DNA from: Promethearchaeota archaeon
GTDB taxonomy: Archaea > Asgardarchaeota > Lokiarchaeia > Sigyniarchaeales > SOKP01
Length of the DNA stretch: 53,880 nucleotides
Assembly: GCA_004524535.1 (NCBI GenBank)
Contig: SDNY01000006.1
Coordinates: 1-53,880, forward strand
Reading direction: 5' to 3'
Every line of letters begins with the position of its first letter. The stretch's first letter is position 1. Below the pieces are notes generated by a model, which saw only the letters and a list, made by a program, of their open reading frames with translations, made no database searches and was not told the origin of the DNA. Positions 18,553-39,244 of this stretch are shown piece by piece. The position numbers and the translations under genes were made by a program.

Positions 18553-18826
18553 CTATTTACCAATAGGGAGCGCAACCGAGAAGATAAGTTGGATTACTTT
18601 CGCCAATTCAAATGATTTTTTAAATTGTATACGATAACACTCCCAACACTACAATACCAATTCCACATATTTTAAATATCAACCAATATTCTTTTCTTGA
18701 AGGTTTATTCGCTGTCTTAATAATTCTCTTTGCATTTTTTAGGAATTGGGTAAGTCTTTCATACCTTCCTGGCTTCTGTTTAGATTGATACTTAGAGTAT
18801 TTATCATATTTGGGGTAACTTGACAT
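18553..18826 (-). CDS. secE: Protein translocase SecE/Sec61-gamma, spliced: join(18629..18826,18553..18597), 80 aa
   Basis: RIIKTANKPSRKEYWLIFKICGIGIVVLGVLSY is the Sec61-gamma signature and the gene lies downstream of ftsY. Removing 18598..18628 continues in frame as VIQLIFSVALPIGK*. Confidence 0.92.
18598..18628 (-). other. 31-nt bulge-helix-bulge intron in the secE mRNA
   Basis: Outer helix GUUA/UAAU, central helix UCGU/GCGA, 3-nt bulges AU^A and AA^G, inner stem CAAUUUAAA/UUUGAAUUG. Confidence 0.88.
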
Positions 18827-18890
18827 TCTATTCTATCCAATTAATTATTTTTAAAAAATTTATCTCTTAATTAAATATAGTAGGAAAAAT

Positions 18891-19790
18891 TCAATCTAAA
18901 TCGAGTATATTTGAGATAATTAAATCGCGATTAAATACTTCTAAATCGTTATAATCTTGTCCCACACCCATGAATATAATTGGTTTTCTTGTCTCAAAAG
19001 AGATTGACAAAGCAGCTCCACCTTTAGCGTCAGCATCTAATTTTGTTAATATATTAGCATCAATACCCACGTGCTTTTTAAATTCTTTTGCTTGAAAAAG
19101 AGCGTCATTCCCAGCAAGGCTATCGCCCACAAATATGATTAAATCTGGTTGTGCCACTCGAACGATTTTTTCAAGCTCAATCATTAAGTTCTTATCACTA
19201 ACCTGCCTCCCTGCAGTATCTATAAGAACAACATCAATCCCCTTTGCTTTAGCGTGCTCAATGGTGTCGAAAGCAACAGAAGCCGGATCCGATTTATAAT
19301 CGTGTTTAATTACTCTAATATCCACATTATTCATATGATATGAAAGCTGCTCAATAGCTCCAGCTCTAAAAGTATCAGCTGCCGCCGCCACAGAGGATAT
19401 ATTTTGCTTTTTTAAATAATGGGCGATTTTTGCCATTGTAGTTGTCTTTCCCGTTCCGTTAACTCCTAAAAAAACAATCACAAAAGGAAGATTTTTTTCG
19501 ATTTTTTTTTTAATTTCTTTTAATATATCTATCTCTTCGTCAGGAGTTAGAATCTCTGTAATAATATCTTTTAAAGTTTCAAATAGCATTTTCTTTGTAG
19601 AAGAAAATCTTCCAATTTGTTCATCTTTAAATGATTCCACAATTCTGTCGCAAATCTCATCTGCGGTATCAATTGCAACATCATTACTCAAAAGAAGTAG
19701 CTTTAAATCGGTAATTGAATTAGATATTTTTTTTTCGCTTAAAGTTTTTTTGATAAAAGAAGAGAAACCTTTTTTTAATTTATCAAGCAT
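18891..19790 (-). CDS. ftsY: SRP receptor FtsY
   Basis: GVNGTGKTTT, DTFRAGAIEQL, DTAGR, TKLDADAKGG, GVGQ. Confidence 0.97.
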   Translation of the reverse strand: MLDKLKKGFSSFIKKTLSEKKISNSITDLKLLLLSNDVAIDTADEICDRIVESFKDEQIGRFSSTKKMLFETLKDIITEILTPDEEIDILKEIKKKIEKNLPFVIVFLGVNGTGKTTTMAKIAHYLKKQNISSVAAAADTFRAGAIEQLSYHMNNVDIRVIKHDYKSDPASVAFDTIEHAKAKGIDVVLIDTAGRQVSDKNLMIELEKIVRVAQPDLIIFVGDSLAGNDALFQAKEFKKHVGIDANILTKLDADAKGGAALSISFETRKPIIFMGVGQDYNDLEVFNRDLIISNILDLD

Positions 19791-19842
19791 TAATTATATC
19801 ACATGAAATGAATTATATTTGAATTTACCTTGATTAAATTAA

Positions 19843-20262
19843 TTATCGTTGCTGAAAACCGCTTCTCTGAAAAGCCATTGACATATTTTGAAGGTTTAAA
19901 TCCAAATTTTGTATCTGGGTTCTTAAAAATTGCAATTGTTCATTGTGCTGTCCAATAATCTTATCAACAAATTCTATTGAATTATCTAAATCTTTTTCAA
20001 TCACAACGTCTTGTGAAATATAAAGTTGAATTTTTTTAGGATTCTTGATTGTAGCATAAATATTAATTAATCCGCCTATTGGGATTAAAATCTCTTCGCC
20101 TTCTTTAACAGTCTTTAAATTTTCTATGGTCTCTTTAGTATTCCGAAAATTATTAAGAGATACATTTACAAACTCTAGTTGATTAGCGAACATATCCCTT
20201 TGATCTTTTAAATACTTAAATTGATATAATAAAGCTTGTTTATTTTCTTGAGGATTTTCCAT
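19843..20262 (-). CDS. pfdA: Prefoldin alpha subunit
   Basis: Coiled coil, EILIPIGG hairpins, coiled coil; conserved position between rplX and ftsY. Confidence 0.9.
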   Translation of the reverse strand: MENPQENKQALLYQFKYLKDQRDMFANQLEFVNVSLNNFRNTKETIENLKTVKEGEEILIPIGGLINIYATIKNPKKIQLYISQDVVIEKDLDNSIEFVDKIIGQHNEQLQFLRTQIQNLDLNLQNMSMAFQRSGFQQR

Positions 20263-20293
20263 ATTTTTTCACTCAGATTGAGTTAATTATAAT

Positions 20294-20524
20294 CTATTGA
20301 GATAATTCACGTATAAGATGATCTTGACTTTCTTCTGCTGTAATTTCCTTTATTTCTTCAATTTTAATTTGTCGCCTATAAATACCTATAGATGTTATTT
20401 GTGATAATGCTTTTTCGAGAGCATCTTTTTCTTTAAGCGCACGGATTTCCTTTCTAAAAAGGTATTTTTTTTGTTTTCTAGTGTAAGTACCGATTATTTG
20501 ATATATTTTTATCTCAGATGACAT
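20294..20524 (-). CDS. rpl18a: 50S ribosomal protein L18Ae/LX (eL20)
   Basis: KIYQIIG..FRKEIRAL..R.QIKIEEIKEI; synteny. Confidence 0.88.
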   Translation of the reverse strand: MSSEIKIYQIIGTYTRKQKKYLFRKEIRALKEKDALEKALSQITSIGIYRRQIKIEEIKEITAEESQDHLIRELSQ

Positions 20525-20596
20525 AATTATTTGGTAAAATCATTTAAAAATTATTAAATTTTGCTTTTTTTTAGATTTAAGAGAAAATTACGTCTT

Positions 20597-21280
20597 TTAG
20601 AGCTTTAGAACGGATGTAAGCCTCATTAATTCTGGTCCAGTTGAATCCATGCCAAAAATCCCACTTTTATCATTAACTATCGCACCCGCACTAAGATATG
20701 GAATACCTCGATTGATGGTGCTTACATCAGTTTCCACTTTTAAGATTGATGAGATCTTCTCAATTTCATCGTCATTAGCAAGAGGATGGACTAAACAGCC
20801 GTTATTATTTGCTATGGATATTGAACCTGGAAGAGAAGAGCCTGCAAATTCAAATACTTCAGTTTCAATATTTAAAATATCTTCTATTTGTTTTCTATAA
20901 TCTTTTAAAAATGAGCTAATAATTGCACCCTTATCGTTGCAAAGTATTAGGTTTCCAAATGCATTATCTAAGGAATTGAGAATTCCGATTTGAGTTAACT
21001 CTCCAATATTTGATTTCAGCACGTTAAATTCATCTTCCTTTATGATATTTGGTACTATAATTCCGTATTTGTTTGATGCAGTGTATATTCCTAATAGATT
21101 AGAATTGTTTATAGTTAAAGGAAATAACGGTTCGTTAAAAACTGATTTGAACTTTTTAAGTATTGGTTTTAATAGAAGATGAGGATATAAAACATATGAA
21201 TTATTTGCTGCTAAATAAACGCCTATTAAATTATTTCCAAAAACTTGAGCTTTAAGAATAGACAACGATTTAATTTCCAC
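20597..21280 (-). CDS. eif6: Translation initiation factor 6 (aIF6)
   Basis: Pentein repeats GNLILCNDKGA, GCLVHP, TINRG, TGPEL. The true start may be the downstream TTG (MSILK). Confidence 0.94.
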   Translation of the reverse strand: MEIKSLSILKAQVFGNNLIGVYLAANNSYVLYPHLLLKPILKKFKSVFNEPLFPLTINNSNLLGIYTASNKYGIIVPNIIKEDEFNVLKSNIGELTQIGILNSLDNAFGNLILCNDKGAIISSFLKDYRKQIEDILNIETEVFEFAGSSLPGSISIANNNGCLVHPLANDDEIEKISSILKVETDVSTINRGIPYLSAGAIVNDKSGIFGMDSTGPELMRLTSVLKL

Positions 21281-21315
21281 CGAAACTATATTTTAAAAGT
21301 AGTAAAGTTATAATC

Positions 21316-21774
21316 TCAGGCGAGATATACAACAACTAATCCATCAATATTCTTTGTTGCTCTTACTTTCAATTTTCGAGGGGGTTTTTGAGCTCCCCGT
21401 TCCCAAATCTTCTCGTTTACTTCTTGTGAAATTATTAAAGATTCCGGTTTAAAATGGCGATCTAAATATTCCCGTAAGTATCTGATCGATTTCTTTGCCC
21501 ATTTCTTTCTAGGACCTCTTCGAGCTTTCACGATTGGTATATTATATAGTCGTTCGTCAATAATCTCTTCTTTGGGGGCTTCAACTTCTTCTAACTCTTC
21601 TTCAATTTCTTCCTCAAATATTTCATCAATTTCTTGCTCTTCAGAAATCTCTTCTATTTCAAATTCTTCAATTTCTTCAATTTCTTCTTCAACTATTTCT
21701 TCTTGAATCTCTTCGGTATCTAACTCTTGTTCTAAATCATCTAAACTAATTTCTTTACTTTTTTTTTTCGCCAT
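21316..21774 (-). CDS. rpl31e: 50S ribosomal protein L31e with long acidic N-terminal extension
   Basis: ERLYNIP...VNEKIWERGAQKPPRKLKV core; about 70 Glu-rich residues at the N-terminus. Confidence 0.92.
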   Translation of the reverse strand: MAKKKSKEISLDDLEQELDTEEIQEEIVEEEIEEIEEFEIEEISEEQEIDEIFEEEIEEELEEVEAPKEEIIDERLYNIPIVKARRGPRKKWAKKSIRYLREYLDRHFKPESLIISQEVNEKIWERGAQKPPRKLKVRATKNIDGLVVVYLA

Positions 21775-21818
21775 TTTTTTTCAATTTTTTCTGTTTATTA
21801 ATGAAATTAATTGTTTTT

Positions 21819-21980
21819 CTAATCCTTTTTGAGCTTTTGGTTTCTCCATTCCCGCCTGGTGTAGGGGCTTGTTCTTGTTTTTCCCCCTGTCTTCATTGTA
21901 ACCCAACTTGGAATGGATTTACTCTGATTCAGCTTTTTAGCTCTTCTTAATTTAGAGGGTAAATCTTTATTTCTTGCCAT
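21819..21980 (-). CDS. rpl39e: 50S ribosomal protein L39e (53 aa; absent from the ORF track)
   Basis: Translated by hand: MARNKDLPSKLRRAKKLNQSKSIPSWVTMKTGGKTRTSPYTRREWRNQKLKKD*; lies between PDCD5 and rpl31e. Confidence 0.93.
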   Translation of the reverse strand: MARNKDLPSKLRRAKKLNQSKSIPSWVTMKTGGKTRTSPYTRREWRNQKLKKD

Positions 21981-22000
21981 AATATAATTTTCATCTCTCT

Positions 22001-22345
22001 TTAGATAGTTTGATCAAATTTCTTAATTTTAAAATCTTTTTTCTTACCGGAAAGTTGTTCTAACAACTTTTTAAAAGCTGCATCCGATAATGGACCTCTT
22101 AATCTTCCTGCTTGAGCTAATTGTATTAATTGAAATTCAATTTCCTGGGCAAATTCAGGCTTAACAATTCGAATGTTTTCTAATCGTTGTCTTCCTTCTT
22201 GTGAAAGTATCTTTCTCATAATCTGATATTTACGAGCTTCAAAATCTTGCTTTTGAGCCTCAGCTATTTGTTGCTGAGCGACTTGTTGTTGTATCTCTTG
22301 TAATTTCTTCCTTCTTAATTCTTCTAATTTTTCTTCGTCACTCAA
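22001..22345 (-). CDS. PDCD5-like DNA-binding protein
   Basis: LEELRRKKLQE, ILSQEGRQRLENIRIVKPE, QLIQLAQAGR; synteny. Confidence 0.92.
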   Translation of the reverse strand: MSDEEKLEELRRKKLQEIQQQVAQQQIAEAQKQDFEARKYQIMRKILSQEGRQRLENIRIVKPEFAQEIEFQLIQLAQAGRLRGPLSDAAFKKLLEQLSGKKKDFKIKKFDQTI

Positions 22346-22360
22346 AATAAAACACGCAAA

Positions 22361-22786
22361 TTAGCTTTTTTTTCTTGAAATAGAATATCCTGTTCTTTCT
22401 AATAAGCTTCTTCCTTCGTTAGAAAGAATTCTGCCATTTTTTTCTGTTTTCACAATTAAATTAGCATTTTCTAATTGTTGTAATGCCACTCTTATGATTT
22501 TTCCACTTCCTTTAGCACTATGTTTTAAACCAGAACCCTTTTTATTCCTGCCTCCGTATTTCTTTCTTAATCGATTTACTCCGATTGGTCCAAATTTATT
22601 AATTTTTCTTAATAATGATGCACATCGGACATACCAAAATGTATGATGATTGACTGGTGCTAATTCCTTAAAAAATGCGGTCTTCCAAAATTCCGAACCA
22701 TTTGGAGCATTGATTTCAGGGTATTCTTTTAATTTTTCAGCAACTGCTTGAATAAACGTGGATGGTTCAATGATGTATATCGACAT
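22361..22786 (-). CDS. rps19e: 30S ribosomal protein S19e
   Basis: WYVRCASLLRK, GPIGVNRLRKKYGG, GSGKIIRVALQQLE. Confidence 0.96.
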   Translation of the reverse strand: MSIYIIEPSTFIQAVAEKLKEYPEINAPNGSEFWKTAFFKELAPVNHHTFWYVRCASLLRKINKFGPIGVNRLRKKYGGRNKKGSGLKHSAKGSGKIIRVALQQLENANLIVKTEKNGRILSNEGRSLLERTGYSISRKKS

Positions 22787-22881
22787 ATGCTAATATCTTT
22801 AATTCATATTTCTTATTTATTATTATAATATTTTGTAAAATCAATAGAAAATTAAAAATTTTATTATTTTAAGAACAAGAA

Positions 22882-23154
22882 ATGGGATATACTAGGGAAT
22901 TTAAAAAAGTACTTTTATCAGAACCGCACGCAACTCTAGGAAAGAATGGTATTACTGATGAATTCATAAGTCATATCTCTAAATTGCTGAAGAGATATAA
23001 AATAATTAAAATTAAAGCACTAAAATCTATTGCTATAAAATCAAATATAAAAGAAATTGCTCATAACATTTCTAAAAACACAGAATCCTATTTATTAGAT
23101 GTGCGTGGATTCACATTTATCATTTCTAAAAATCCAATTGAAAAAAACCAATAG
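22882..23154 (+). CDS. YhbY/CRM-domain RNA-binding protein
   Basis: LGKNGITDEFI..L..YKIIKIK..VRGFT. Confidence 0.85.
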   Translation: MGYTREFKKVLLSEPHATLGKNGITDEFISHISKLLKRYKIIKIKALKSIAIKSNIKEIAHNISKNTESYLLDVRGFTFIISKNPIEKNQ

Positions 23155-23178
23155 AATTTAATTTTAACTACATATCAA

Positions 23179-23502
23179 ATGTCCAATTCTAAATATTTAA
23201 TTAAACAGATCGCAAGAAATAGAATAAATTTCTTATTTCAAAGAGCTCACGAAATATTTCATGAAAATAAGAGTTTAAGTAATAGATATGTATATTTAGC
23301 TCGCCGTTACGCTCAGCGAGCCAGAATTAAAATTCCATTTGAATGGAAAAAACGCATATGTAATGAATGTAAATCATTTTTATATCCAGGGTTAAATTGC
23401 AGGATAAGAATGCAATCTCGAAAAGGAAAGGGCTCACATGTTTCTTTAACCTGTTTTGAGTGTAATAAGACAACGCGATATTTTATTAAAACCAAGAATT
23501 AA
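23179..23502 (+). CDS. rnp4: RNase P protein component 4 (Rpp21)
   Basis: IARNRINFL, RYVYLARR, KRICNECKSFLYPG, TCFECN zinc ribbon. Confidence 0.93.
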   Translation: MSNSKYLIKQIARNRINFLFQRAHEIFHENKSLSNRYVYLARRYAQRARIKIPFEWKKRICNECKSFLYPGLNCRIRMQSRKGKGSHVSLTCFECNKTTRYFIKTKN

Positions 23503-23545
23503 TTGAATCATATATCTTTTTAATAAGAAAAATCATAACTTAATC

Positions 23546-24220
23546 ATGCCATTGATCATTGTTTTAGTAGAATGTGGACTCGAATTAATTCCTAAGCAAA
23601 TTCGCAATCAACCTTCTGTAAAAAGAAATTTAAAAGTTAAAAAATATTATTCACTGCTTTTAGATAACGCCTTACATCATTCCGCTATGAAAAACCTTAA
23701 AAATCACGATAAAAGAGGGCGTCCTGATATTACCCATATTTGTTTGCTTAATGCACTGGGGTCTCCTTTAAATAAGAGTGGAAATTTAAAGATATACGTT
23801 CATACAATTCATAATAGAATCTTTGATATAAATCCAGAGATTAGAATAGCAAGAAATTATAATCGGTTTAAAGGATTAATTGGAAAAACATTATTAGAGG
23901 GAGATATAATTATTAAAGATAAAAAATTAATCTCTCAAGTAGATGGAAATTTAAATGACCTAATAAAATCCATTGAAAATTCAGAAATACTATTATTTTC
24001 AAGTAGGGGATCATTAATTAAAAGCCATCAAAACTTATTTCTAAAAAACTCGTCTAAAAACTATATTGCAATTATTGGAGGCTTTCAAAAAGGTAGTTTT
24101 TCAAAAGAGATCTTATCATTATCAGATAATTTAATATCTATTTCAAAGCATCAATTAGATGCATGGGTGGTTATAAATAGAATAATTACTTACTATGAAA
24201 TTTCGCATAGTTTAATTTAA
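23546..24220 (+). CDS. nep1: 16S rRNA pseudouridine N1-methyltransferase Nep1 (Emg1)
   Basis: LLDNALHH, RGRPDITHICLL, SPLNKSG, RNYNRFKGL, IGGFQKG. Confidence 0.93.
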   Translation: MPLIIVLVECGLELIPKQIRNQPSVKRNLKVKKYYSLLLDNALHHSAMKNLKNHDKRGRPDITHICLLNALGSPLNKSGNLKIYVHTIHNRIFDINPEIRIARNYNRFKGLIGKTLLEGDIIIKDKKLISQVDGNLNDLIKSIENSEILLFSSRGSLIKSHQNLFLKNSSKNYIAIIGGFQKGSFSKEILSLSDNLISISKHQLDAWVVINRIITYYEISHSLI

Positions 24221-24255: not shown

Positions 24256-24327
24256 GCGCTCTTAGTATAGTGGTAAGAATCTCGGGTTTCCAACCCGAGG
24301 ACCCGGGTTCAATTCCCGGAGGGCGCA
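24256..24327 (+). tRNA. tRNA-Gly(TCC), intronless, CCA not encoded
   Basis: Acceptor GCGCTCT/AGGGCGC, anticodon arm TCGGG-TTTCCAA-CCCGA, T arm CCGGG-TTCAATT-CCCGG. Confidence 0.95.
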
Positions 24328-24496: not shown

Positions 24497-25615
24497 TTAC
24501 TTGCAAAACAGATCATTTGCCATAATTTCAGCTGGTTTAAATATATCTGTGGCTCCATCCCATACTAATAAGATATTATGATAAAGGGTTTCAAATTTAT
24601 CAACAAAATATTTTAATACAACCTTAGGAAAATTTAGTTCTTCTGAAGTATACAATATACCAGATACATTTTTTGCTTGATAGATAATCACATTCTCTCC
24701 TTTCTTTTGTAAGACCGAAATAGCATTTCGTTCCTCACCAGTTTCACTTAGTTCGCGAAGCATTATATTTATGCTGGTAATTGCAGCAGAAATTAAATTT
24801 TCATCCATTAAATCTTTTCTTTCACTGAAAACTTTATAATAAATGCAAATACCCGCACTATTCACTAGAAAAAGAGCCTCTATTTTGTCTTGCCAATCAA
24901 ATTCAGAAAACGGAGGTAAGGTCAAGAAAAAATAAGATAATATTACGACAGAAAATAACTGAAGAATAGAACCAATCATTCGACCTTCAAGACCAAAAAT
25001 CGTTATTGCGACATCTGTAGTAAGCGCAAATCCAAAAACCATTAATAAAAGACCGCTAAAAAAGAAAATTCTATTTTTCTCTAACTTTTTCATAAATTTT
25101 ATCAAATATATAACAAAAAAAGATGAAAAACTTAACCAATATATATACGTTACCGCTTGAGTTATCCTAATATCTATGAAAAACAAGATCAAAAAAATTA
25201 TAGCACATATTGAAAAGATCGTTGTAAATACATATCTTTTAAATATAAACACAATATATTTTTCAACGCAGAAAAGAAAAATCGTCGTAAAAAAAATCAT
25301 TGTAAAATACCCTAAATTTAAGAAAAACGCTCTTGCACTTCCACTTCTCCAAATAAGAAAAGGAGATATAATATCATCTTCAACAAAGTAATTCCCTATA
25401 ATATAAAAACACCACATTAGTGAAAAGCCGAAAAATAACGAAAAATATCCGACATCTTGTAAATTTCTCAATGTTTTTTCTTGTTTGAAATATCGCACTA
25501 AAAAAATAAGACTAATTTCAAAACCCGTAATTATGAAAATCCATTCCATTATCAATAATGGTAATCTTATATCTCCACTTATTGGGAATTCTAAAAACAG
25601 CATGTTAATATTCAC
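24497..25615 (-). CDS. 7TM membrane protein with C-terminal longin/roadblock-like domain (paralog 3)
   Basis: Seven hydrophobic segments; C-domain LFLVNSAGICIY..ENLISAAITSI..FVDKFE..WDG...F. Confidence 0.7.
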   Translation of the reverse strand: MNINMLFLEFPISGDIRLPLLIMEWIFIITGFEISLIFLVRYFKQEKTLRNLQDVGYFSLFFGFSLMWCFYIIGNYFVEDDIISPFLIWRSGSARAFFLNLGYFTMIFFTTIFLFCVEKYIVFIFKRYVFTTIFSICAIIFLILFFIDIRITQAVTYIYWLSFSSFFVIYLIKFMKKLEKNRIFFFSGLLLMVFGFALTTDVAITIFGLEGRMIGSILQLFSVVILSYFFLTLPPFSEFDWQDKIEALFLVNSAGICIYYKVFSERKDLMDENLISAAITSINIMLRELSETGEERNAISVLQKKGENVIIYQAKNVSGILYTSEELNFPKVVLKYFVDKFETLYHNILLVWDGATDIFKPAEIMANDLFCK

Positions 25616-25655
25616 CTTTTAGTATTATAGACTTTTTAACATAAAAATAAAAGAA

Positions 25656-26774
25656 TTACTTGCGAAATAGATCATCTGCCATAATTTCAGCTGGTTTAAA
25701 TATATCTGTGACTCCATCCCATTTTATTAAGATATTATGATAAAGAGTTTCAAATTTATCAACAAAATCTTTTAATACAACCTTAGGAAAATTTAGTTCT
25801 TCTGAAGTATACAATATACCAGATACAAGTTGTCCTTGATAGATAATCACATTTTCTCCTTTCTTTTGTAAGACCGAAATACCATGTTGATGCTGACCAG
25901 TTTCACTTAGTTCGTCAAGCATTATATTTATGCTGGTAATTGCGGCAGAAATTAAATTTTCATCCACTAAATCTTTTCTTTCACTGAAAACTTTATAATA
26001 AATGCAAATACCTGCATCATTTACTAGGAAAACAGCTTCTATTTTATCTTGCCAATCAAATTCAGAAAATGGTGGTAAGGTCAAAAAATAATAAGATAGT
26101 ACTACAACAGATAATAATTGAATAATAGCACCAATCATTCGACCCTCAAGACCGAAAACCGATATTAAGGCGTCTGTAGTAAGCCCAAATCCAAATATCA
26201 TTAAGAAAAATCCGCTAAAAAGCAATATCGTGGTTTTTCCTGACTTTTTTATAAATTTTATCAAATATATAGCAAAAAAAAATAAAAAACTACTCCAATA
26301 TATATATGTTACCGTTTGAGTTATCCTAATATCGATGAAAAACAAGATCGAAAACAATATGGCACATATTAAAAAGATCGTTGTAAATACATATTTTTTA
26401 AATAGAAATACAATATATTTTTCAACACATAAAAGATAAATCATCGTAAAAGAAATCATTGAAAAATACCCTAAATTTAAGAAAAATGCTCGTGCACTTC
26501 CACTTCTCCAAATAAGAAAGGGAGATACAATATTGTCTGGAACAAAGTAATCCCCTAAAATAAAAAAAAACCACATTAGTGAAAAGCCGAAAAATAACGA
26601 AAAATATCCGACATCTTGTAAATTTCTCAATGTTTTTTCTTGTTTGAAATATCGCACTAAAAAAATAAGACTAATTTCAAACCCCGTAGTTATGAAAATC
26701 CATTCCATTATCAATAATGGTAATCTTAAATCTCCACTTATTGGGAATTCTAAAAACAGCATGTTAATATTCAC
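25656..26774 (-). CDS. 7TM membrane protein with C-terminal longin/roadblock-like domain (paralog 2)
   Basis: Same length (372 aa) as, and visibly highly similar at DNA level to, 24497..25615. Confidence 0.7.
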   Translation of the reverse strand: MNINMLFLEFPISGDLRLPLLIMEWIFITTGFEISLIFLVRYFKQEKTLRNLQDVGYFSLFFGFSLMWFFFILGDYFVPDNIVSPFLIWRSGSARAFFLNLGYFSMISFTMIYLLCVEKYIVFLFKKYVFTTIFLICAILFSILFFIDIRITQTVTYIYWSSFLFFFAIYLIKFIKKSGKTTILLFSGFFLMIFGFGLTTDALISVFGLEGRMIGAIIQLLSVVVLSYYFLTLPPFSEFDWQDKIEAVFLVNDAGICIYYKVFSERKDLVDENLISAAITSINIMLDELSETGQHQHGISVLQKKGENVIIYQGQLVSGILYTSEELNFPKVVLKDFVDKFETLYHNILIKWDGVTDIFKPAEIMADDLFRK

Positions 26775-26776
26775 AT

Positions 26777-27892
26777 TTAGTATAATAGACCTTTTATTAT
26801 TAAATCAAAACTTCCAAAAAGTTGTTCTTCACTTCCTATAAAACTATCTACTTCACTTAATATTTCTTTATAAAAAGCTTCAAACTGATTTTTAATAGTT
26901 TTTAAAAAAAAACGATTGCTATCTAAATCTTCTTTAACGATTAAGGCGTAAGCTATTTGAAGGGGGGATCTAGTTCCATATTCTAATAAAATAAGTGAAT
27001 CAGCTTGTTTAATTTTATTCATTTTTTCACCTTCCGTTTTCGTTATAGCTGAAAGAATGCTGTCGATTCCAGTAATGCCACCTGAAAATAACCTCTTATA
27101 ATCTTTGTGTTTAGATTTAAGTTCAGAGAAATCATAACTATAAAGACTAGTATGATTTTTTTGGTCGATAATAAGTAGTCTTAATAAATTATCTTTCCAT
27201 TTTAGTTCATAAAAAGCAGGGAACGAATGAACACCTAATAATACAATAATAAGACCTGCCATCAATAAAGAAATCCCCATGAAAATAAGAATATTTAAGG
27301 GATAAAAACCTGCAATTATCTCCATTACAACAAATAAGGATATTATACTTAAATCAGTACCAATAAAAATTAATAATAATCTATTTTTAATAATTCCTTT
27401 AGAAGTGTTAATTAATCTGATTTGAAAAATTAGAAAGTATATTAAAATTGCTGATAGTATTATTGTAACTATTAAAAATGTGAAAAGCTCACTTGAAGGT
27501 AAAAGAATTACAACAATAATCGGAATTAGATTAATGATTATTAGAGATTTCGCGATTTTTGTATTAATTATTTTTGAAAATTCTTTAATACTAATAAAAA
27601 ATAAAAGTGCTATAGTAGAAAGAAACATTGAAACATATCCAAATTTGTAAATGATTTCTGTCCAGATAGGATCCAAAATAAAAAGTCTATTAATAGCTAA
27701 AATAAAATCACTAATAATAAAAAATATAAAAAACACTCCAAATGACAATAATATCATATTTAAAGGGAGTCGTTCGTCTCTGATTTTATAATATCGATAA
27801 AGAAAATATATTACTAATTGAATCCCTAATATTGTGGTAGTTAAATAAAATAAGAGTTCAATCTCTTGAATTTTATTCAATTGGAACAACAT
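26777..27892 (-). CDS. 7TM membrane protein with C-terminal longin/roadblock-like domain (divergent paralog 1)
   Basis: Seven hydrophobic segments, PAFYELKW linker (compare PPFSEFDW), LFSGGITGI..FE..Y. Confidence 0.68.
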   Translation of the reverse strand: MLFQLNKIQEIELLFYLTTTILGIQLVIYFLYRYYKIRDERLPLNMILLSFGVFFIFFIISDFILAINRLFILDPIWTEIIYKFGYVSMFLSTIALLFFISIKEFSKIINTKIAKSLIIINLIPIIVVILLPSSELFTFLIVTIILSAILIYFLIFQIRLINTSKGIIKNRLLLIFIGTDLSIISLFVVMEIIAGFYPLNILIFMGISLLMAGLIIVLLGVHSFPAFYELKWKDNLLRLLIIDQKNHTSLYSYDFSELKSKHKDYKRLFSGGITGIDSILSAITKTEGEKMNKIKQADSLILLEYGTRSPLQIAYALIVKEDLDSNRFFLKTIKNQFEAFYKEILSEVDSFIGSEEQLFGSFDLIIKGLLY

Positions 27893-28235: not shown

Positions 28236-28398
28236 GCCAACGTGGCGTAGCCCGGAAAAAACTAGACTCTCCTAGTATTGGGTAGGAACGCACCAGATTC
28301 CTCGGAATTACCGATAAAGGTGAAACTGAAGATCTGGGTATCGAGAAAATTCGAGAGATTCTCTCGATTTCGATAAGGTTCAAATCCCTCCGTTGGCA
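28236..28398 (+). tRNA. tRNA-Phe(GAA) with three non-canonical BHB introns: 28256..28285 (19/20), 28297..28324 (30/31), 28346..28376 (51/52)
   Basis: Spliced product GCCAACG TG GCGT AGCCCGGGA ACGC A CCAGA CTGAAGA TCTGG GTATC GAGGG TTCAAAT CCCTC CGTTGGC A is a complete cloverleaf. Confidence 0.9.
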
Positions 28399-30210: not shown

Positions 30211-31233
30211 TTATTTATCTACTTCTGAGATTTTTACGGGGCGATTCTCTTCATATGATTTTTGAGCGGCCATTGCTACTAAAACATTTTGAAGACCATC
30301 ATCTCCATTAGGATAAGGTATCTGATTATTTTTAAGGCATTCAAAGAAATACTTAAGTTCAGTTGCGTATGACTCCACATATCGTTCCAAGAAAAAGTAT
30401 GGAATCTTGTCGATGTTTGTACAATCGGCAGTGTAGATTCTGACTGTATTGGTGGCTTCGTTATCTGCCAATACACAACCTCTCGAGCCAAAAACTTCAA
30501 CACGTTGGTCATAACCATAGACCGCTTGACGTGTATTGTCAATTATTCCAATCGCTCCATTTCTGAATTTCAAAACTGCTACTGCTGTGTCAATATCTCC
30601 AGCTTTTCCAATTTCAGGGTCAACTAATACCGCTCCGCTTGCATATACTTCTTCCACTTCACTGCCTGCTTGGTATCGTGCCATATCCCAATCATGTATA
30701 GTCATATCTAAGAAAATCCCACCGCTAACTTTTATGTATTCTATTGGAGGGGGAGCCGGATCCCGAGAAGTTATTTTAATAATCTGGGGTGTACCTACTT
30801 GCCCTGAACTAATTGCTTCATGAACTCGCATGAAATTACGGTCAAAGCGTCTATTAAATCCAACCATTAATTTTACGCCCTCATTTTTAACTATTTCAAG
30901 CGTCTTTTTAATCCTATCAATATCTACATCAATAGGCTTTTCACAAAAAATATGCTTTTTTGATTTGGCGGCTTCTTGAATATAATTAGCGTGTGTATCT
31001 GTAGAGGAAGCAATTAATACAACATCAATTTCAGGATCGGAAAAGATTTCATTAGAATCTGTTGTGAGTTTTAATATACCTCTCTCATCAGCCCATTGTT
31101 TCAATTTATCATCTACGTTCACATCCGAAATGATTTTTAAAGAAATATCAGGGACTTTTCGTAATAGATTTTCGATATGTAGTTTGCCGATGCGTCCAGC
31201 ACCAATTACACCAACTACAAATTTTTTAACCAT
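30211..31233 (-). CDS. iolG: Inositol 2-dehydrogenase (Gfo/Idh/MocA family)
   Basis: GAGRIG, CEKP, GFNRRFD, SRDP, DMTIHD, YGYDQRVEVFGS. Confidence 0.9.
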   Translation of the reverse strand: MVKKFVVGVIGAGRIGKLHIENLLRKVPDISLKIISDVNVDDKLKQWADERGILKLTTDSNEIFSDPEIDVVLIASSTDTHANYIQEAAKSKKHIFCEKPIDVDIDRIKKTLEIVKNEGVKLMVGFNRRFDRNFMRVHEAISSGQVGTPQIIKITSRDPAPPPIEYIKVSGGIFLDMTIHDWDMARYQAGSEVEEVYASGAVLVDPEIGKAGDIDTAVAVLKFRNGAIGIIDNTRQAVYGYDQRVEVFGSRGCVLADNEATNTVRIYTADCTNIDKIPYFFLERYVESYATELKYFFECLKNNQIPYPNGDDGLQNVLVAMAAQKSYEENRPVKISEVDK

Positions 31234-31418
31234 AATAAATCTCCTAATTTATTGAAGTCTTTTTAGTTAAATCATTAAATATAAGTTTAAGAAGAGATTT
31301 TTTTGATAATAATTTTTCGTTTGAGCTTCCCAATAGTTTGGTTTTAATTCTAATGGAACTTAATATTAGATTATAAACATCTTTAAAAATTTAAATTAAA
31401 TAAATTTTAAGTGATTTT

Positions 31419-33209: not shown

Positions 33210-34025
33210 TTATAAAATCCTTTTTAAATATTCTGATGATTCTTTAGCCACATCTTCAAAAGAAGGCTTCATTATCGATTCAATTGACGCAAATCCTTTA
33301 AATTCAGATTCTTTAAAGATATTTAAGAAGGATTTAAAATCAAAATGGCCTGTACCTGGAGCCCGCCTATTATCATCTGATAAATGCAGATGAGCAACGT
33401 ATGGAATGATATCTTTCATATCTTCCCAAATAAATATCGGATCTTCTTCTAAATAAGTATGAAATGAATCGATTAATAGTTTTAAGTTGTCTGATCCAAT
33501 TTCTTCTAATAGTTCTATTGATTCTGAAATTGTGTTGTAAGAATCTATTTCAAACCTGTTGATCGGCTCAAATAACAATTCCACATTGTTATTTTCTGCG
33601 ATTCTACAACATTCTTTTAGTGAATGTATAATATTCAATTTTTCTTTTTTAGGACTACTTTGAGAACTATAACGCCCTCTAATTAAGCCAATGATTACTT
33701 TTGATTGCACTTCTCGAGCAAAATCAATATATTTTTCAAGCCTTTCAATAGCCTTTATTCTTATGTTTTCTTCTACATGCCCTAGGGAATAACCAAAACG
33801 GAGATAGGTGGCGCCAGTCCCTATTGCGGGAATCTCCATGTCATAAGAATCTTTAATTTCAATTAGTTTATTTGTATCAATCTTTTCTGGTTCTAATAAG
33901 CTTAGTTCAATGCCATTAAAATTTAGGGGTTTTAACAATTCACATAAATTTTTGAATCTTTCATTGATTTTCTCTTGATTGCTCTTGGATTCTTCCAATC
34001 CAGAAACAATACTTAATTTCATCAT
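33210..34025 (-). CDS. Sugar phosphate isomerase/epimerase (xylose-isomerase-like TIM barrel, IolO/DTE-like)
   Basis: GIEL, EPINRFE, DSFH, HLSDDNRRAPGTGH, SIE. Confidence 0.87.
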   Translation of the reverse strand: MMKLSIVSGLEESKSNQEKINERFKNLCELLKPLNFNGIELSLLEPEKIDTNKLIEIKDSYDMEIPAIGTGATYLRFGYSLGHVEENIRIKAIERLEKYIDFAREVQSKVIIGLIRGRYSSQSSPKKEKLNIIHSLKECCRIAENNNVELLFEPINRFEIDSYNTISESIELLEEIGSDNLKLLIDSFHTYLEEDPIFIWEDMKDIIPYVAHLHLSDDNRRAPGTGHFDFKSFLNIFKESEFKGFASIESIMKPSFEDVAKESSEYLKRIL

Positions 34026-34249
34026 TATCTTATTATGTTTGTTTTATTAAAAGCTTTGACTTGGATGTAAAATAATTATGATGAATAAAATACTCGTCTG
34101 GAAGTCATATTTATAAAAGGCAAATATTATATAGAGAATAATGATAAATTTATAAAATTAGAATTTATTGGTAATAAGGATATAGGGAATTAAATAATCA
34201 AAAATTAGCCTACAAATCTTTTATATAGGAAAAAAAAGGAGTTTCTAAT

Positions 34250-37240
34250 ATGAAGAGGAATAATAGAAAATTAATAATTTTTTTAATAATATTCATCTTC
34301 GTAGTCTCTGCTTTCAATATTAATAGTTTTTATAAGAATAACTCATCATCGAATAAGATAAATATTGAAAAATCCCAAGAGATTGAAATAATAAATAAAA
34401 ATATAACTGATCTGGAACATTTAAAATCTGCTGGAGGTGGATCAGAGCAATTACACAATTTTTCCTTTACTGCACGGATACAAGAAACATGGCAAGAGGG
34501 TATTTGGTTCGTTAACAACACTTCCACTAAACCTAACGAAAATACTGATTGGATGATATTACCCAATACAAAAAATTCCACTATTTTGGCATTTGCATGT
34601 TATATTAGTCAACTTTTAAACTCATCTACATATGAAGATTTAGAACCAAGTGATCTTACAACGATGAAATTATCTTTCATGAATGAATCAATGGAAAGAG
34701 TTAACTTAAGTGAATTTGTAATTCATACACCTCCTGAGGACTGGAGGAAATTTAATAGTTCTGGAGGGTCAATTAAAATAAATGAGAGTAATGATGCTGA
34801 ATTTGTTATTTGGAATGATTGGGAAGAAAATACTAATATAAATTATACTGCTTATATGTCTATATATGCTAGCAGGATTCATTACGTTGAAACAAGATTT
34901 ATTCCCACTATTGAAAATACCCAATCAGATATAATAACTTGGGAATTATTATATGATGGTCATAGTCAAGGCTATTATGATGGCTCCATAAGAATAGAGG
35001 ATTTAGAAAAATTTACAATTGGAAAAGTTTTAGGATTTAATGGTTCATATTGGAAACCATTAGATTATACTAAAGATAATACTCATATTTTTTTAAGTGA
35101 GGGTTGTAGAAAGTATAAAATTGAGCTCCAAACTCCAAATTATCTTTCAATAGTTTATAATGATAATTTAACTTATGCGACAAACAGTAATAGACTTCAA
35201 TTATATGCTACAGCTAAGATGGATGGGAATATGACGATTCGATTTATTAATTCTAATGGTACCTTAGTTTACGAGAACACTACTGAAGTTATAAAGGACA
35301 AAACCCTATTTTATGATTACAAAATGAATTTAAATGAATCAGGGGGAATTGGGTACCTTAATATTACACTAATAAATGGATCAAAAATCGAGTTTGGTGT
35401 GAAGATCTGTGAAATCCTATTTCATAAACAATGTATCTTTGAAGGAATGACTTCAAACACAACCGCTTTCTCTCAATTTTTTGTAGCTATGTTATATATA
35501 GATTTTAATCTCTTAATTCACTATTTAATATTAAATTCTACTGGGGAAATGCCTCTCAATATGTGGGAAGCGTTCAGTTTATCAATTATTCCCAATGCTA
35601 CTATAACATATGAATTAGGTGATTTTCAAGGGGAGTTAACATACCAATATCTAGGGGGATTTTATGGTGCACCAAATATAACCCTTTATTGGGATAATTT
35701 AGATTTAAGTGAATATCAAATCGTTCCCGGTGAATATAACCTTACTTATAAAGCAAGCAAACCTGGATACCAACCTTTAGAGTATATAACCCCTTTTATA
35801 ATCGAACCAAAAGCAGTGAATATTACTGTTGTGACTATCGATGATACTGTCGCAATAGAAGAAGAATTTTTAATTGTTTTGGAATTTTCTGAGAATGATA
35901 CAAGGCAACCTTATTTGTGGACACCAGTTACTTTGAATCTTACTTTTACTTATATTAAAACTGGAGAAATTGATGTTCAAGTTCAATGGCCAGATGCTGC
36001 AATTCAAGCTATTACAATTCAAGATGTTATAGGAAATGATACTCTTCCTGGAGACTATAATTTAACTATCACTATTGATTCCGACTATTATTATGGTGAA
36101 ACCTCGTGGATAATGCATATTACTAAAAAAGTACTTGATCTATCAGTTGATTATGATGCAGATATTAGAGCAGGAGAAGATACAAATTTTTCTTGGTCGT
36201 TAGAAAATAATAATTTTCAGGGGAATCGAGTAAATATGTCTCTACAAATCATTTTAGACAATCAACTTTATAGGGAATATAACTTAACTTCAAATTCTAC
36301 AGGATGGAAAATAATGAATTTTGCTAGTGGGACTCACAATATAACTTATCGCATAGTAAGCCCCTTTTATGAAGCTGAAACAACTGTTATTATAAAAACC
36401 GTAAAATCCTCATTACCTATCGCCGATGATGATGATGATGACGATAAAGACAAGGAAGAAAATCTGCTATTGTGGCTCATCATTATAGGTATATTAATCG
36501 CTGTGAGCATTTTAGCAGTATTCCTCTTAATTTCAAGGCATAAGGTTAAGGCGCAAAGAGAATTAGATTCTGAATTAGTTGCCTTAAAAACGAAAACAAC
36601 GGCTTCAGAACAAAAAATTTCGCTTATTGAAGCTCAGATATCCCAAATCGCTTCGATCTACTGGATAATAATCGTCCACTCGGAACAAGGAACGACAATG
36701 GTTGAAATATCAGACTTCAGATTCGGAGAAGTTTTAGATGAAAAATATAAACATTTTATAGGCAAGGGTATGATGAGGGACTCTGCTCTAATTGGTGGAT
36801 TTCTAACAGCAATACGAAATTTTAGCAGAGAAACATCGGGTACATCTTTAGAATATCAACCTGTGTTTAACAGTCAAACAGATTACAGTACAGTTGTAGA
36901 TGATAACGAAATACATAGAAGAATTTTAGAAGGAACAGATTATTTTATGGCATTTGTTTCTTCAAGAGGAACGATTGAAATTTCAGACGTTTTATCCTCA
37001 GTAAACTCAATATTTCAAGAGGAATACGGTGAAATGGTTGAAAAGTTTGATGGAGCGATTAGCCCTTTCAGACCTTTTGAAGAAATGGTCGTAGATTTTT
37101 TACATAATGAGATAAGAGAACTGCAGAAAAAATTAAAAGAAGAAGAATTAATACTTGGACAATTTGAGGGACATCTAAAAGAAGTTCAAGAAAAAATTGG
37201 ATTTAAACCGAAAAAATCAGCTGACCTCGATTATAAATAG
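34250..37240 (+). CDS. Single-pass surface protein with large glycosylated ectodomain and cytoplasmic coiled-coil plus longin-like domain
   Basis: Signal/TM, many NxS/T sites, poly-Asp, TM, then IIVHSEQG..SALIGGFLTAIRNFSRE..FDG..PF. Confidence 0.7.
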   Translation: MKRNNRKLIIFLIIFIFVVSAFNINSFYKNNSSSNKINIEKSQEIEIINKNITDLEHLKSAGGGSEQLHNFSFTARIQETWQEGIWFVNNTSTKPNENTDWMILPNTKNSTILAFACYISQLLNSSTYEDLEPSDLTTMKLSFMNESMERVNLSEFVIHTPPEDWRKFNSSGGSIKINESNDAEFVIWNDWEENTNINYTAYMSIYASRIHYVETRFIPTIENTQSDIITWELLYDGHSQGYYDGSIRIEDLEKFTIGKVLGFNGSYWKPLDYTKDNTHIFLSEGCRKYKIELQTPNYLSIVYNDNLTYATNSNRLQLYATAKMDGNMTIRFINSNGTLVYENTTEVIKDKTLFYDYKMNLNESGGIGYLNITLINGSKIEFGVKICEILFHKQCIFEGMTSNTTAFSQFFVAMLYIDFNLLIHYLILNSTGEMPLNMWEAFSLSIIPNATITYELGDFQGELTYQYLGGFYGAPNITLYWDNLDLSEYQIVPGEYNLTYKASKPGYQPLEYITPFIIEPKAVNITVVTIDDTVAIEEEFLIVLEFSENDTRQPYLWTPVTLNLTFTYIKTGEIDVQVQWPDAAIQAITIQDVIGNDTLPGDYNLTITIDSDYYYGETSWIMHITKKVLDLSVDYDADIRAGEDTNFSWSLENNNFQGNRVNMSLQIILDNQLYREYNLTSNSTGWKIMNFASGTHNITYRIVSPFYEAETTVIIKTVKSSLPIADDDDDDDKDKEENLLLWLIIIGILIAVSILAVFLLISRHKVKAQRELDSELVALKTKTTASEQKISLIEAQISQIASIYWIIIVHSEQGTTMVEISDFRFGEVLDEKYKHFIGKGMMRDSALIGGFLTAIRNFSRETSGTSLEYQPVFNSQTDYSTVVDDNEIHRRILEGTDYFMAFVSSRGTIEISDVLSSVNSIFQEEYGEMVEKFDGAISPFRPFEEMVVDFLHNEIRELQKKLKEEELILGQFEGHLKEVQEKIGFKPKKSADLDYK

Positions 37241-37306
37241 AAATATTTTTTCTTATTTTGAACAATTTTTCAATCTTTTTTTTCTGATTCTTTTTCTAGA
37301 AAATTA

Positions 37307-37663
37307 TTAATCAGTTTTCATACTTTTGTTAATAATATCAAAAACTTGATTAAGATCAATTTGGTCTTCTGTCAAAAGAATAATTACTTTTTCCAAAATT
37401 TTTATTGACAAAACGTAAAAATTATCAGAATGAATTAGATTAAAATCGGGGGCATGAAGACCAATCAGCTGAGTTATTTCTTCTGTCAATTCGTAGAGTT
37501 GAGAAATATCTACAGCAATGGCTGCTTTATTGAATTCATCTTCATTTATATATGATTTTATAACCACTCCATTTTCAGAAATAATTAATGTAAAATATAA
37601 TTTAGATCCTAGTTCCATTACTAATTTGTTCATAATTAGATCGAGATCTAGAGACACAGACAT
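37307..37663 (-). CDS. Roadblock/LC7 (profilin-like fold) protein
   Basis: 118 aa; IISENGVVI followed by a helix and terminal beta strands. Confidence 0.6.
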   Translation of the reverse strand: MSVSLDLDLIMNKLVMELGSKLYFTLIISENGVVIKSYINEDEFNKAAIAVDISQLYELTEEITQLIGLHAPDFNLIHSDNFYVLSIKILEKVIILLTEDQIDLNQVFDIINKSMKTD

Positions 37664-38072
37664 TATTCAATCAAATAACCATTATTATCTATAATTATAA
37701 CTTCCAATTTATAAATAATTTTAGGTTAAAGGGGTATAATTCAAAATTAAGGGTTCAACAACATAACTGTAAACTAAATAAATTTTATATAATGTAATAA
37801 AATTCATTATTATATTTTATCATCATTCGGAATTATTCTACTACACAATAAACGTATTATTTGTTTTAAAATATTTGGAAATTTCTTGCAGAATGTTCAG
37901 AAAAATTGCTCACTAATGGATTAAAAAATTAAGAAAAAATATAGTATAGAATTTCTATTAAAAAATAAGATATTGATGGTTTATAATATAAAAAGAAAAA
38001 TATTTTATTATAAATTTGATTACTTAATTTAATTTAATTTAATGAGAAAAAATAAAAGGGCATATTAAATTT

Positions 38073-38735
38073 ATGATCGATGCGAATAAAGCTGCTCCTC
38101 AGGTAGAATTTAAGGAAGTAAGGATAGTATGTCCTCAATGTAATAAGAGAAATGAATTAACTATTCCTAGTAAAATTATAAATCAAAGTAAACAATTAAC
38201 TACTGTATCAATACCGTCTGGATTAGTATGTGAACACACATTTCAAGCTTTTATAGATAAAAATTTTAAAGTAAGAGGCTATCAAAAAATTGATTACGAA
38301 TTATCAAAAATGGAATTCTTCGAAGGATCTGGTGAAGCATTAGAAGAAAATCATAAAAAAGGAGGGGAACTTAGTACTCTCACCACTTTGCCCATGTTTC
38401 AAGAAATAATTGACCTTTTAAGGAGCATGGTCGATGATAAAGAAATATTAGGAAGCGGTTTATTCACCCTCGAAGGAAATGTCATCTACTCTTCTCTACC
38501 TCATATGACTTTATCTAATACAATTAGAGAGTTTGAATCAAGAGAAAAAAATAAACTATCAAATATAAGAAGAATGCTACTTGAATTAGATGACGAACAA
38601 AAAGTTTGTTCGCAATATATGCACATCTTAGGAGTTAAATTCATTCTAGTTTTATTGTTCAACTCCGATATAAGGTTAGGAATGGGTATAGTGTTAATGT
38701 CCAACCTGGCTAAAAAAATTGAAGAGTTAACTTAA
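38073..38735 (+). CDS. Zinc-ribbon plus roadblock-like domain protein
   Basis: CPQC..CEHTFQAFIDKNFKVRGYQ, then ILGSGLFTLEGNVIYSSLP..RLGM. Confidence 0.65.
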   Translation: MIDANKAAPQVEFKEVRIVCPQCNKRNELTIPSKIINQSKQLTTVSIPSGLVCEHTFQAFIDKNFKVRGYQKIDYELSKMEFFEGSGEALEENHKKGGELSTLTTLPMFQEIIDLLRSMVDDKEILGSGLFTLEGNVIYSSLPHMTLSNTIREFESREKNKLSNIRRMLLELDDEQKVCSQYMHILGVKFILVLLFNSDIRLGMGIVLMSNLAKKIEELT

Positions 38736-38838
38736 ATTAAATATATAGAAAGCCTTAAAAAAAATAAAGAGATTCTCATTCTTTATACTTTATAAAAATT
38801 GCTAAAATTCAGTTAAGTTCTATTTTTTAATTAAAATA

Positions 38839-38942
38839 TGGGCCTGGCAGGATTCGAACCTGCGACTTTGGGTTTGATGGAAAAGCTCATCAAAAATCCC
38901 AGTCCGAAGCCGGGCACCCTATCCAGACTAGATTACAGGCCC
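38839..38942 (-). tRNA. tRNA-Arg(TCG) with a 29-nt BHB intron at 45/46 (38867..38895)
   Basis: Acceptor GGGCCTG/CAGGCCC; CCCGG-CTTCGGA-CTGGG; central helix UGGG/CCCA, bulges AU^U and AA^G. Confidence 0.92.
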
Positions 38943-39109
38943 ATGAGTATTTTTAAATTTCTCAATTTCTCTTCTAAAAAAATTAATAGATAGTAAGGAT
39001 AAAAATGCTTTTAATATTTTTATGCTTGATTTCTAAAAACTTTTTTCTCAAAAAAATTTTTATGTTATCAATTCTTTTGCTTTAGTAATTTTATTACCTT
39101 ACAATAAAA

Positions 39110-39244
39110 GCCCACATAGTGTAGAGTAAAAATTCATATCGAATAAAACACATAATTCGGTCCAGCATTCGGGACTGTCACTCCTGCGACCCGGGATGTC
39201 TATCCTTCTGAATAGACACGGGAATTCAAATCCCGGTGTGGGCG
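39110..39244 (+). tRNA. tRNA-Asp(GTC) with two BHB introns: 39125..39155 (15/16) and 39196..39224 (53/54)
   Basis: Spliced product GCCCACA TA GTGT AGTTCGGTCCA GCAT T CGGGA CTGTCAC TCCTG CGAC CCGGG TTCAAAT CCCGG TGTGGGC G. Confidence 0.92.

Follow-up and report, generated by a model that had tools for sequence, protein, structure and literature searches.

In eukaryotes, the unconventional splicing of HAC1/XBP1 mRNA combines cutting by IRE1 with RtcB-type ligation. In archaea, a bulge-helix-bulge (BHB) intron was reportedly found in the cbf5 pre-mRNA of Crenarchaeota by Watanabe in 2002 and by Yoshinari in 2006. The same intron is treated in Yokobori 2009 (PMC2738675; our comparisons with this and the other cited papers draw on parts of their texts). 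Multi-intron tRNAs are already in print for Asgard archaea (PMC11291895; bioRxiv 10.64898/2026.10.13.758758), as is an (alpha-beta)2 tRNA-splicing endonuclease (EndA) with the L1 (Crenarchaea-specific) loop (PMC5829648). Here we describe a 53,880-nt stretch of a Promethearchaeota genome (SDNY01000006.1, positions 1 to 53,880; hereafter the window), in which seven inserts interrupt secE (Sec61-gamma) and the genes for tRNA-Phe, tRNA-Arg, and tRNA-Asp. The seven are tRNA-type BHB introns. The extension of this intron class to mRNAs, wider than the original prediction made from the window had seen, is strongly supported by comparison of gene sequences, and we estimate a probability of roughly 0.86 that mRNAs of secE and no fewer than 10 other protein genes also must be spliced by the tRNA-maturing machinery.

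The window corresponds to contig C186 in a genome of 3.66 Mb and 198 contigs, with an estimated completeness of 99.1% and an estimated contamination of 4.4%; G+C is ∼30%. Its interrupted protein gene is composed as follows.

18629..18826, minus strand: secE exon 1, 66 codons, last codon TAT; partial Pfam SecE match, aligned with 21 homologues
18598..18628, minus strand: secE BHB intron, 31 nt; central helix (H) TCGT/GCGA; bulges AT/A and AA/G (slash, exon border); hairpin helix (h') 9 bp; outer helix (h) GTTA/TAAT, 4 bp
18553..18597, minus strand: secE exon 2, 14 codons plus stop

As called, the secE open reading frame (ORF) ends after 68 codons at an in-frame TAA two codons into the intron, and the Pfam SecE match on this unspliced ORF spans only profile positions 2-40 of 55. 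Excision of 18598-18628 fuses codon TAT to GTA and yields an 80-aa SecE. Over its last 14 residues, this product matches several uninterrupted 80-aa homologues (e.g., P0001) exactly in an alignment that took 21 of 43 homologues, whose source labels read Promethearchaeota, Lokiarchaeota, or Thorarchaeota. The frame and the conserved C terminus are regained with the BHB-predicted boundary alone; no other boundary yields that product.

Among related genomes, secE is a single uninterrupted 80-aa frame in G008 (94% identical DNA), G005, G002, and G004, which belong to the same genus as the genome under study (G000), and in G009, from the same family. A search for related loci in genome contigs returned only three secE loci, all uninterrupted; six further loci had no secE ORF by motif search and were excluded from this count. 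The insert itself recurs, gapless, in two contigs, each from a different other study; one (X2, record 3) differs at 3 of 281 nt and the other (X4, record 11) at 14 of 231 nt. Other contigs of the X2 and X4 runs diverge at 18633 and then read as uninterrupted secE, with letters equal to G008. Compared with G008, the intron-bearing allele differs at synonymous sites that form H and h.

The remaining six inserts of the window lie in three tRNA genes, listed here with the one intronless tRNA gene as context.

28236..28398, plus strand: tRNA-Phe(GAA), three introns, 163 nt; mature form 74 nt including the discriminator base; Rfam 22 bits unspliced, parser 56-59 spliced
28256..28285, plus strand: tRNA-Phe intron 1, 30 nt, D-loop at ∼19/20; H GCCC/GGGT; relaxed BHB, with h' of 2 bp, an internal loop, and 4 bp
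28297..28324, plus strand: tRNA-Phe intron 2, 28 nt, position 30/31; H CACC/GGTG
28346..28376, plus strand: tRNA-Phe intron 3, 31 nt, position 51/52; H ATCG/CGAT; strict hBHBh', h' 5 bp, h 5 bp
38839..38942, minus strand: tRNA-Arg(UCG), one intron, 104 nt; Rfam tRNA 49.4 bits, and parser
38867..38895, minus strand: tRNA-Arg intron, 29 nt, position 45/46; H TGGG/CCCA; h' 7 bp, h 0, i.e., HBh' type; first nucleotide T
39110..39244, plus strand: tRNA-Asp(GUC), two introns; not detected by ARAGORN or, at either threshold, by Rfam; found by parser
39125..39155, plus strand: tRNA-Asp intron 1, 31 nt, position 15/16; H GTGT/ACAT
39196..39224, plus strand: tRNA-Asp intron 2, 29 nt, position 53/54; H CCCG/CGGG; h' 7 bp, h 2 bp
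24256..24327, plus strand: tRNA-Gly(UCC), intronless; ARAGORN, Rfam

The inserts were examined by direct sequence reading, with a custom BHB scanner, and with a cloverleaf parser that may skip BHB candidates of 11-110 nt. All seven were recovered with the coordinates, lengths, and ends originally assigned to them, and, in agreement with the original claim, none of the six tRNA introns occupies position 37/38. Excision of all six restores full cloverleaves of 74-75 nt for tRNA-Phe, tRNA-Arg, and tRNA-Asp. Standard finders perform poorly on these four genes: ARAGORN retrieved one (tRNA-Gly) and Rfam at its gathering score two (tRNA-Gly and tRNA-Arg), with tRNA-Phe at 22 bits falling below the Rfam threshold of 29 bits. 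Judging from match spans in other genomes, tRNA-Phe intron 1 lies within matches in G001, G014, G012, G010, and G019, and in G014 and G012 the unaligned spans include all three Phe introns. For tRNA-Asp, the spans suggest that G001, G007, G009, and G012 carry intron 1 and that G008 and G020 lack it, and intron 2 falls within a G017 match span. These spans suggest an old, patchy inheritance of the window tRNA introns across genera.

All seven window inserts form a 4-bp H helix with 3-nt bulges exactly at the exon borders. The original prediction had described 4 nt complementary to the upstream exon in each intron; as a helix this holds for all seven, but three (secE, Phe intron 1, and Asp intron 1) contain one G-U pair within H. 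At least two contiguous h' pairs are present in 7/7, and the hairpin abuts the bulge by only two contiguous pairs in three of the six tRNA introns. An h helix of at least two pairs occurs in 3/7, and only secE, Phe intron 3, and Asp intron 2 have the strict hBHBh' form. A free minimum-energy fold gave the helix-bulge-hairpin in seven of eight introns folded. Because the cloverleaves are restored and secE has a single frame-restoring cut site, the inserts are more than chance matches to a motif. The predicted A at the first position and AA at the last two were each found in six of the seven, but this preference is weaker in tRNA introns genome-wide (A in 11/15, AA in 7/15). The idea that each intron brings its own half of the central helix is not new: it is true of every BHB intron, including those at the canonical 37/38 site, and a central helix built from an exon strand and an intron strand is the BHB model of Marck and Grosjean (as given in bioRxiv 10.64898/2026.10.13.758758). 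The shared design is thus real but equals the textbook BHB, with no new architecture.

The claim that the intron class reaches mRNAs was borne out well beyond secE, with 11 more introns in 10 further protein genes. In total, 12 BHB introns of 30-34 nt were found in 11 protein genes: secE, rpoA' (two), gyrB, cdhA, cdhD, elp3, porG, moxR, and the genes for an ABC ATPase, a DeoC-type aldolase, and an SBF transporter. Candidates were assessed in two rounds, with Pfam run on 38 half-proteins for 20 candidates in the first and on 23 half-proteins for 12 of 67 further candidates, chosen by eye, in the second. Eight candidates were shown to be false, and 11/20 first-round and 5/12 second-round candidates stayed undecided; given these 16, the 12 introns are a lower bound. 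The predicted cut sites regain the reading frame exactly in 12/12 cases. An in-frame stop, an A at the first position, an AA at the end, and a 4/4 H helix are each present in 11 of the 12. Pfam profiles run on across the junctions in rpoA' (Rpb1 domain 1, positions 34-73 before and 74-153 after), cdhD (7-135 and 138-227), and the SBF transporter gene (2-81 and 85-190).

Each of the 12 introns is exactly absent in at least one congener, where the matches are shorter by the intron length and the alignments show clean gaps. Beyond secE, the distribution is as follows.

cdhD intron: 30 nt; absent in 5/5 same-genus genomes
elp3 intron: 31 nt; absent in 5/5 same-genus genomes
cdhA intron: 30 nt; absent in 5/5 same-genus genomes
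rpoA' second intron: 31 nt, 110 nt upstream of the first and revealed by alignment; both absent in 5/5 congeners
porG-like POR subunit intron: 30 nt; absent in 4/4 same-genus genomes
SBF transporter intron: 33 nt; absent in two genomes
ABC ATPase intron: 34 nt; absent in G008
moxR intron: 31 nt; absent in G007
deoC-type aldolase intron: present in G000, G005, and G002; absent in G008 and G004 (2/4)
gyrB intron: present in G000, G006, G003, G004, and G001; absent in G002 and G005 (2/6 aligned)

An intact second copy was sought in the genome for secE, rpoA', gyrB, cdhA, cdhD, elp3, SBF, porG, and moxR, and none was found; for the ABC and DeoC genes, the genome contains no more than distant paralogues. 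A 38-aa stretch at G000:C16:5521-5634, 2 kb downstream of the intron-bearing DeoC-type aldolase gene, is 79% identical to the C-terminal part of that protein and may be a partial duplicate of it. The gyrB genes of G006, G003, G004, and G001 (L148, L150, L151, and L163) carry the intron, so automatic annotation will call them truncated or split.

The gyrB intron, the only one on which compensatory change was tested, was compared among five species. Its strand of H reads CGCT, CGTT, CGTC, or CGCC across the five carriers and pairs in each with the invariant exon GGCG. Hairpin pairs swap C-G to U-A among carriers, and one exon-exon pair changes from U-A to G-C through a Gly third codon position and an Arg first codon position. 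In the whole structure, both partners changed in 7/20 pairs, pairing holds in 89.9% of cells (versus 33-52% with slid partners), and the covariation score was reached by 0/500 shuffles. The deoC intron hairpin has a G-U pair in one genome and an A-U pair in the other two carriers, and its loop differs. We read these substitutions in gyrB and deoC, which preserve the fold, as a sign that structure is under selection.

Transfer RNA genes across the genome contain introns of similar size. Genome-wide, ARAGORN called 20 tRNAs, many with the wrong anticodon, and Rfam placed 15 above threshold. Our parser demands a BHB, leaves intron length free, and is confined to class I tRNAs with an uninterrupted T-loop. 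Its first pass (11-110 nt allowed) resolved 14 class I genes; 10 were interrupted and together held 15 introns, all 28-31 nt long. A second pass with looser stems, which accepted 3/4 central pairs where the hairpin was strong and allowed 11-60 nt, gave 17 genes, 12 of them interrupted, with 17 introns of 27 (n = 1), 28 (n = 2), 29 (n = 5), 30 (n = 5), and 31 (n = 4) nt. A narrow length range thus held genome-wide for the tRNA introns resolved (17/17 at 27-31 nt), and two of them, in tRNA-Ile and tRNA-Pro, are at the canonical position. Three lower-scoring parses with introns of 16-59 nt were regarded as spurious, and seeding by GC islands (1,871 islands) was abandoned. U is nearly universal at anticodon-loop position 33. 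The tRNA-Gln(UUG) gene at G000:C54:18954-19056 (plus strand), which has a 30-nt intron at the border of the variable region and the T-stem, carries C at this position, and its sister tRNA-Gln(CUG) on C153 keeps U33.

The genome encodes the enzymes that such introns would call for. EndA (PF01974) was detected at two loci, at 107.9 and 70.7 bits, as two 201-aa ORFs. The C100 paralogue has as its closest solved chains 3p1z_B, 3ajv_B (E value, 7.6e-37), 2cv8_A, and 2zyz_B, and retains the Tyr, His, and Lys that we take to be the EndA catalytic triad. In alignment to 1a79_A, the C84 paralogue has Ser at the His column, presumably that of the catalytic His of M. jannaschii EndA. Against 3p1z_B, the C100 protein aligns without gaps through query residues ∼55-70, the putative extra-loop region. 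RtcB is intact, with a 561-bit PF01139 match in a 497-aa open frame (rtcB, C101:22508-23815). From these sequences, we predict a two-subunit EndA of the broad-specificity type. In this respect the relaxed-specificity enzyme originally proposed is encoded, but not as a novelty: the architecture is already reported for Asgard archaea, so there is no new "relaxed" enzyme to invoke. Like the (alpha-beta)2 EndA with the L1 loop (PMC5829648; PMC2724299), the pair described here consists of two ∼200-aa paralogues, one without the catalytic His, and no difference was detected in the parts of those papers compared.

Just upstream of rtcB, at G000:C101:21656-21685 (plus strand), lies a 30-nt BHB candidate, a possible intron, whose hairpin has 9 bp; it links a 56-codon frame to a 185-codon frame with a terminal winged-helix domain. 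Pfam was indecisive for this candidate. In a U32 peptidase gene (G000:C85:1508-1533, plus strand) and a sulfatase gene (G000:C74, strand coordinates 7815-7840, minus strand), the Pfam match begins at the first residue after a BHB candidate, from profile positions 157 and 87, respectively, and the upstream frame has no match. Either more introns, with borders placed differently, or broken genes could explain these two cases.

In the mechanism we favor, four exon bases just 5' of the upstream cut would pair with four near the intron 3' end, forming a central helix between two 3-nt bulges that is capped by the intron's own hairpin. The two-subunit EndA would cut once per bulge, and the RNA ligase RtcB would join the exons. 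For the protein genes, we infer cleavage and ligation on the mRNAs from the gene sequences and the encoded enzymes. Several observations weigh against this account. The only RNA run matching part of the stretch (X21) covers 18400-18548, downstream of secE, and is silent on splicing. In four of the seven window introns, h comprises only 0-1 bp, i.e., these are relaxed motifs, and rpoA' intron 1 has only 3/4 central pairs and an interrupted hairpin. The gyrB covariation test used five related sequences and a structure derived from the same five. The 17 parsed tRNA genes are far below a full tRNA set, and their range of intron lengths is that of a sample obtained with a BHB-requiring parser. Finally, a descriptor search of the whole genome (4/4 H pairs, h' of at least 3 bp, length 16-48 nt) returned 395,277 matches, 31,857 of them "restoring" an ORF, with no enrichment of 28-31 nt over neighboring lengths.

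The protein-gene inserts might instead be inactivating insertions, derived from small mobile DNA or from slippage, that are never removed and leave pseudogenes or truncated proteins. Such a history would account for the in-frame stop in 11/12 inserts, and the RNA matches (X21) show no removal, but they miss secE. It fits poorly with rpoA', secE, and gyrB being single-copy core genes in a 99%-complete genome, with flanks that are open and conserved on both sides, and with exact restoration of the frame at the predicted cuts in 12/12. Moreover, five species have kept the gyrB insert, its flanks intact and its sequence altered by compensatory changes. We therefore regard inactivation as highly unlikely. 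Programmed translational bypassing, in which the ribosome would skip the insert in an unspliced mRNA, is known from phage T4 gene 60 and from the "byp" elements of a yeast mitochondrion. The 30-34-nt size, the hairpin, and the early stop resemble bypass elements, but inserts of the same size and BHB build occur in untranslated tRNA genes, the secE codon TAT before the insert has no matching landing codon at the insert end, and bypass has no need of a conserved 4-bp exon-intron helix with 3-nt bulges. Bypassing is, in our judgment, extremely unlikely.

Removal from the RNA by something other than EndA and RtcB, such as another nuclease or self-cleavage, agrees with the relaxed form of some motifs, and the role of EndA is itself deduced. 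It is nonetheless very unlikely: the geometry is that of an EndA substrate and recurs in this genome's tRNA introns, genes are present for both EndA subunits and for RtcB, and, to our knowledge, all known ribozyme introns need more than 30 nt. That the secE insert is an artefact of assembly or binning might be suspected in a 198-contig assembly with 4.4% estimated contamination. This can be very nearly dismissed, given that one contig of the probable source run spans the whole stretch with 0 differences and that the insert is gapless in the contigs of the two other studies. Splicing of the inserts by the tRNA machinery thus appears to be the best account of both the tRNA and the protein genes.

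The closest described case is the cbf5 intron (PMC2738675). As there, a tRNA-type BHB lies in a protein gene, the EndA is presumably hetero-oligomeric, and introns are gained and lost among relatives. Here, in contrast, cbf5 itself is uninterrupted (a TruB_N match in one 353-aa open frame without stops), and the 12 introns, all of 30-34 nt, lie in 11 other genes of an Asgard host. Whereas splicing has been shown for cbf5, in the present genome it is predicted from DNA. A search of the open full-text literature, with subscription journals outside its scope, found no BHB intron in archaeal protein genes other than cbf5. The tRNA introns resemble those of Thermoproteales and Asgard archaea (PMC11291895; bioRxiv 10.64898/2026.10.13.758758) in occurring several per gene, in their D-arm, anticodon-stem, variable, and T-arm sites, in their BHB boundaries, and in being missed by standard finders. 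Those two sources, in the parts compared, treat tRNA genes only, and the preprint text seen is without "mRNA," "secE," or "cbf5." The preprint also gives median intron lengths of 22-23 nt in its Asgard families, versus 27-31 nt for all 17 introns here. The comparison with HAC1/XBP1 is looser: protein enzymes would likewise splice mRNA at stem-loops, with a tRNA ligase joining the exons, but the nuclease and the motif differ. In addition, the HAC1/XBP1 case involves one substrate whose splicing is regulated, and nothing in the present data indicates regulation.

The design and the EndA type are therefore known biology; what is new, relative to the papers searched, is the number of protein genes with such introns, among which several are single-copy and essential. 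The findings extend to mRNAs what has been an "intron-rich tRNA" trait in Asgard archaea, and they predict that RNA polymerase, gyrase, and the Sec translocon depend for their expression on the tRNA-splicing enzymes. With presence or absence visible at each site among congeners, gains and losses of protein-spliced mRNA introns can be tested directly within one defined genus. A practical consequence is that automatic gene calling will cut short or break up such genes, as with secE, which is called at 68 aa instead of 80. The introns are nonspliceosomal and have no direct bearing on the origin of spliceosomal introns.

Size, BHB shape, and a tendency toward A...AA at the bulges are common to the introns. 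The earlier impression that their primary sequences are unrelated was confirmed: among 23 introns (15 tRNA and 8 mRNA), the best local score of 19 equaled the mean best score of 100 shuffles, revealing no sequence families, and no sign of copying between sites was seen in the same set. The proposed lineage-wide process of intron gain fared less well. Introns of tRNA, gyrB, and deoC genes are shared with other species in a patchy manner, so for any single intron loss is as likely as gain. A broader proposal, which we hold tentatively and at somewhat less than even odds, is that in this Loki-type genus the tRNA-splicing machinery acts as a general mRNA-splicing system. Under this proposal, ∼30-nt BHB introns would come and go continually in core protein genes (RNA polymerase, gyrase, SecE, and CODH/ACS), synonymous exon sites would coevolve with the intron so as to form the splice helix, and expression would depend on EndA and RtcB. 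If true, the archaea closest to eukaryotes would have a route to split protein genes that relies on protein enzymes, and the tight 27-34-nt size together with the A...AA ends would point to one insertion mechanism.

The descriptor search that had been proposed as a test did not discriminate: the motif performed no better than background, and the real cases needed homology and congener comparison. When matches were divided by hp+h class, counts at 28-31 nt equaled scaled control-length counts up to hp+h = 9; at hp+h of at least 10, 16 were observed versus 11.3 expected at 28-31 nt. Once an A start, an AA end, and an h' of at least 6 bp were added, a length of 30 stood out (12 versus 0-7 at other lengths). 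Taken alone, the BHB motif is weak evidence. A codon-usage score was likewise poor at telling true from false, with true cases at 0.04-0.42 per codon.

The rejected candidates illustrate the background. A secY candidate on C188 has the same length in congeners, and a candidate on C90 joins DUF2299 and HIT, which are two complete genes. Pfam on half-proteins showed the S15-S3Ae and PhoU_div-PHO4 candidates to be false, and the domain of a DUF371 candidate is whole in the downstream part. By eye, a candidate on C44 proved to be an ABC ATPase followed by a permease starting with Met, an L4-L23 candidate on C76 was judged false, and window positions 31226-31253 overlap an oxidoreductase start codon. 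Window positions 15336-15365 are off-frame within a 989-aa ORF.

The other genes of the window are archaeal housekeeping genes by Pfam (FtsY, prefoldin, L18Ae, eIF6, L31e, S19e, and Nep1). Several of its ORFs are listed here for completeness.

21316..21774, minus strand: L31e ORF, 152 aa, with the Pfam domain at residues 77-140 only, i.e., an N-terminal extension or a miscalled start
24497..27892, minus strand: three ORFs of 371-372 aa arranged head to tail; no Pfam family for the single one searched (24497-25615)
34250..37240, plus strand: 996-aa ORF without a Pfam family
13396..16365, minus strand: 989-aa ORF, secreted type and rich in repeats, with a C-terminal acidic run and a transmembrane anchor

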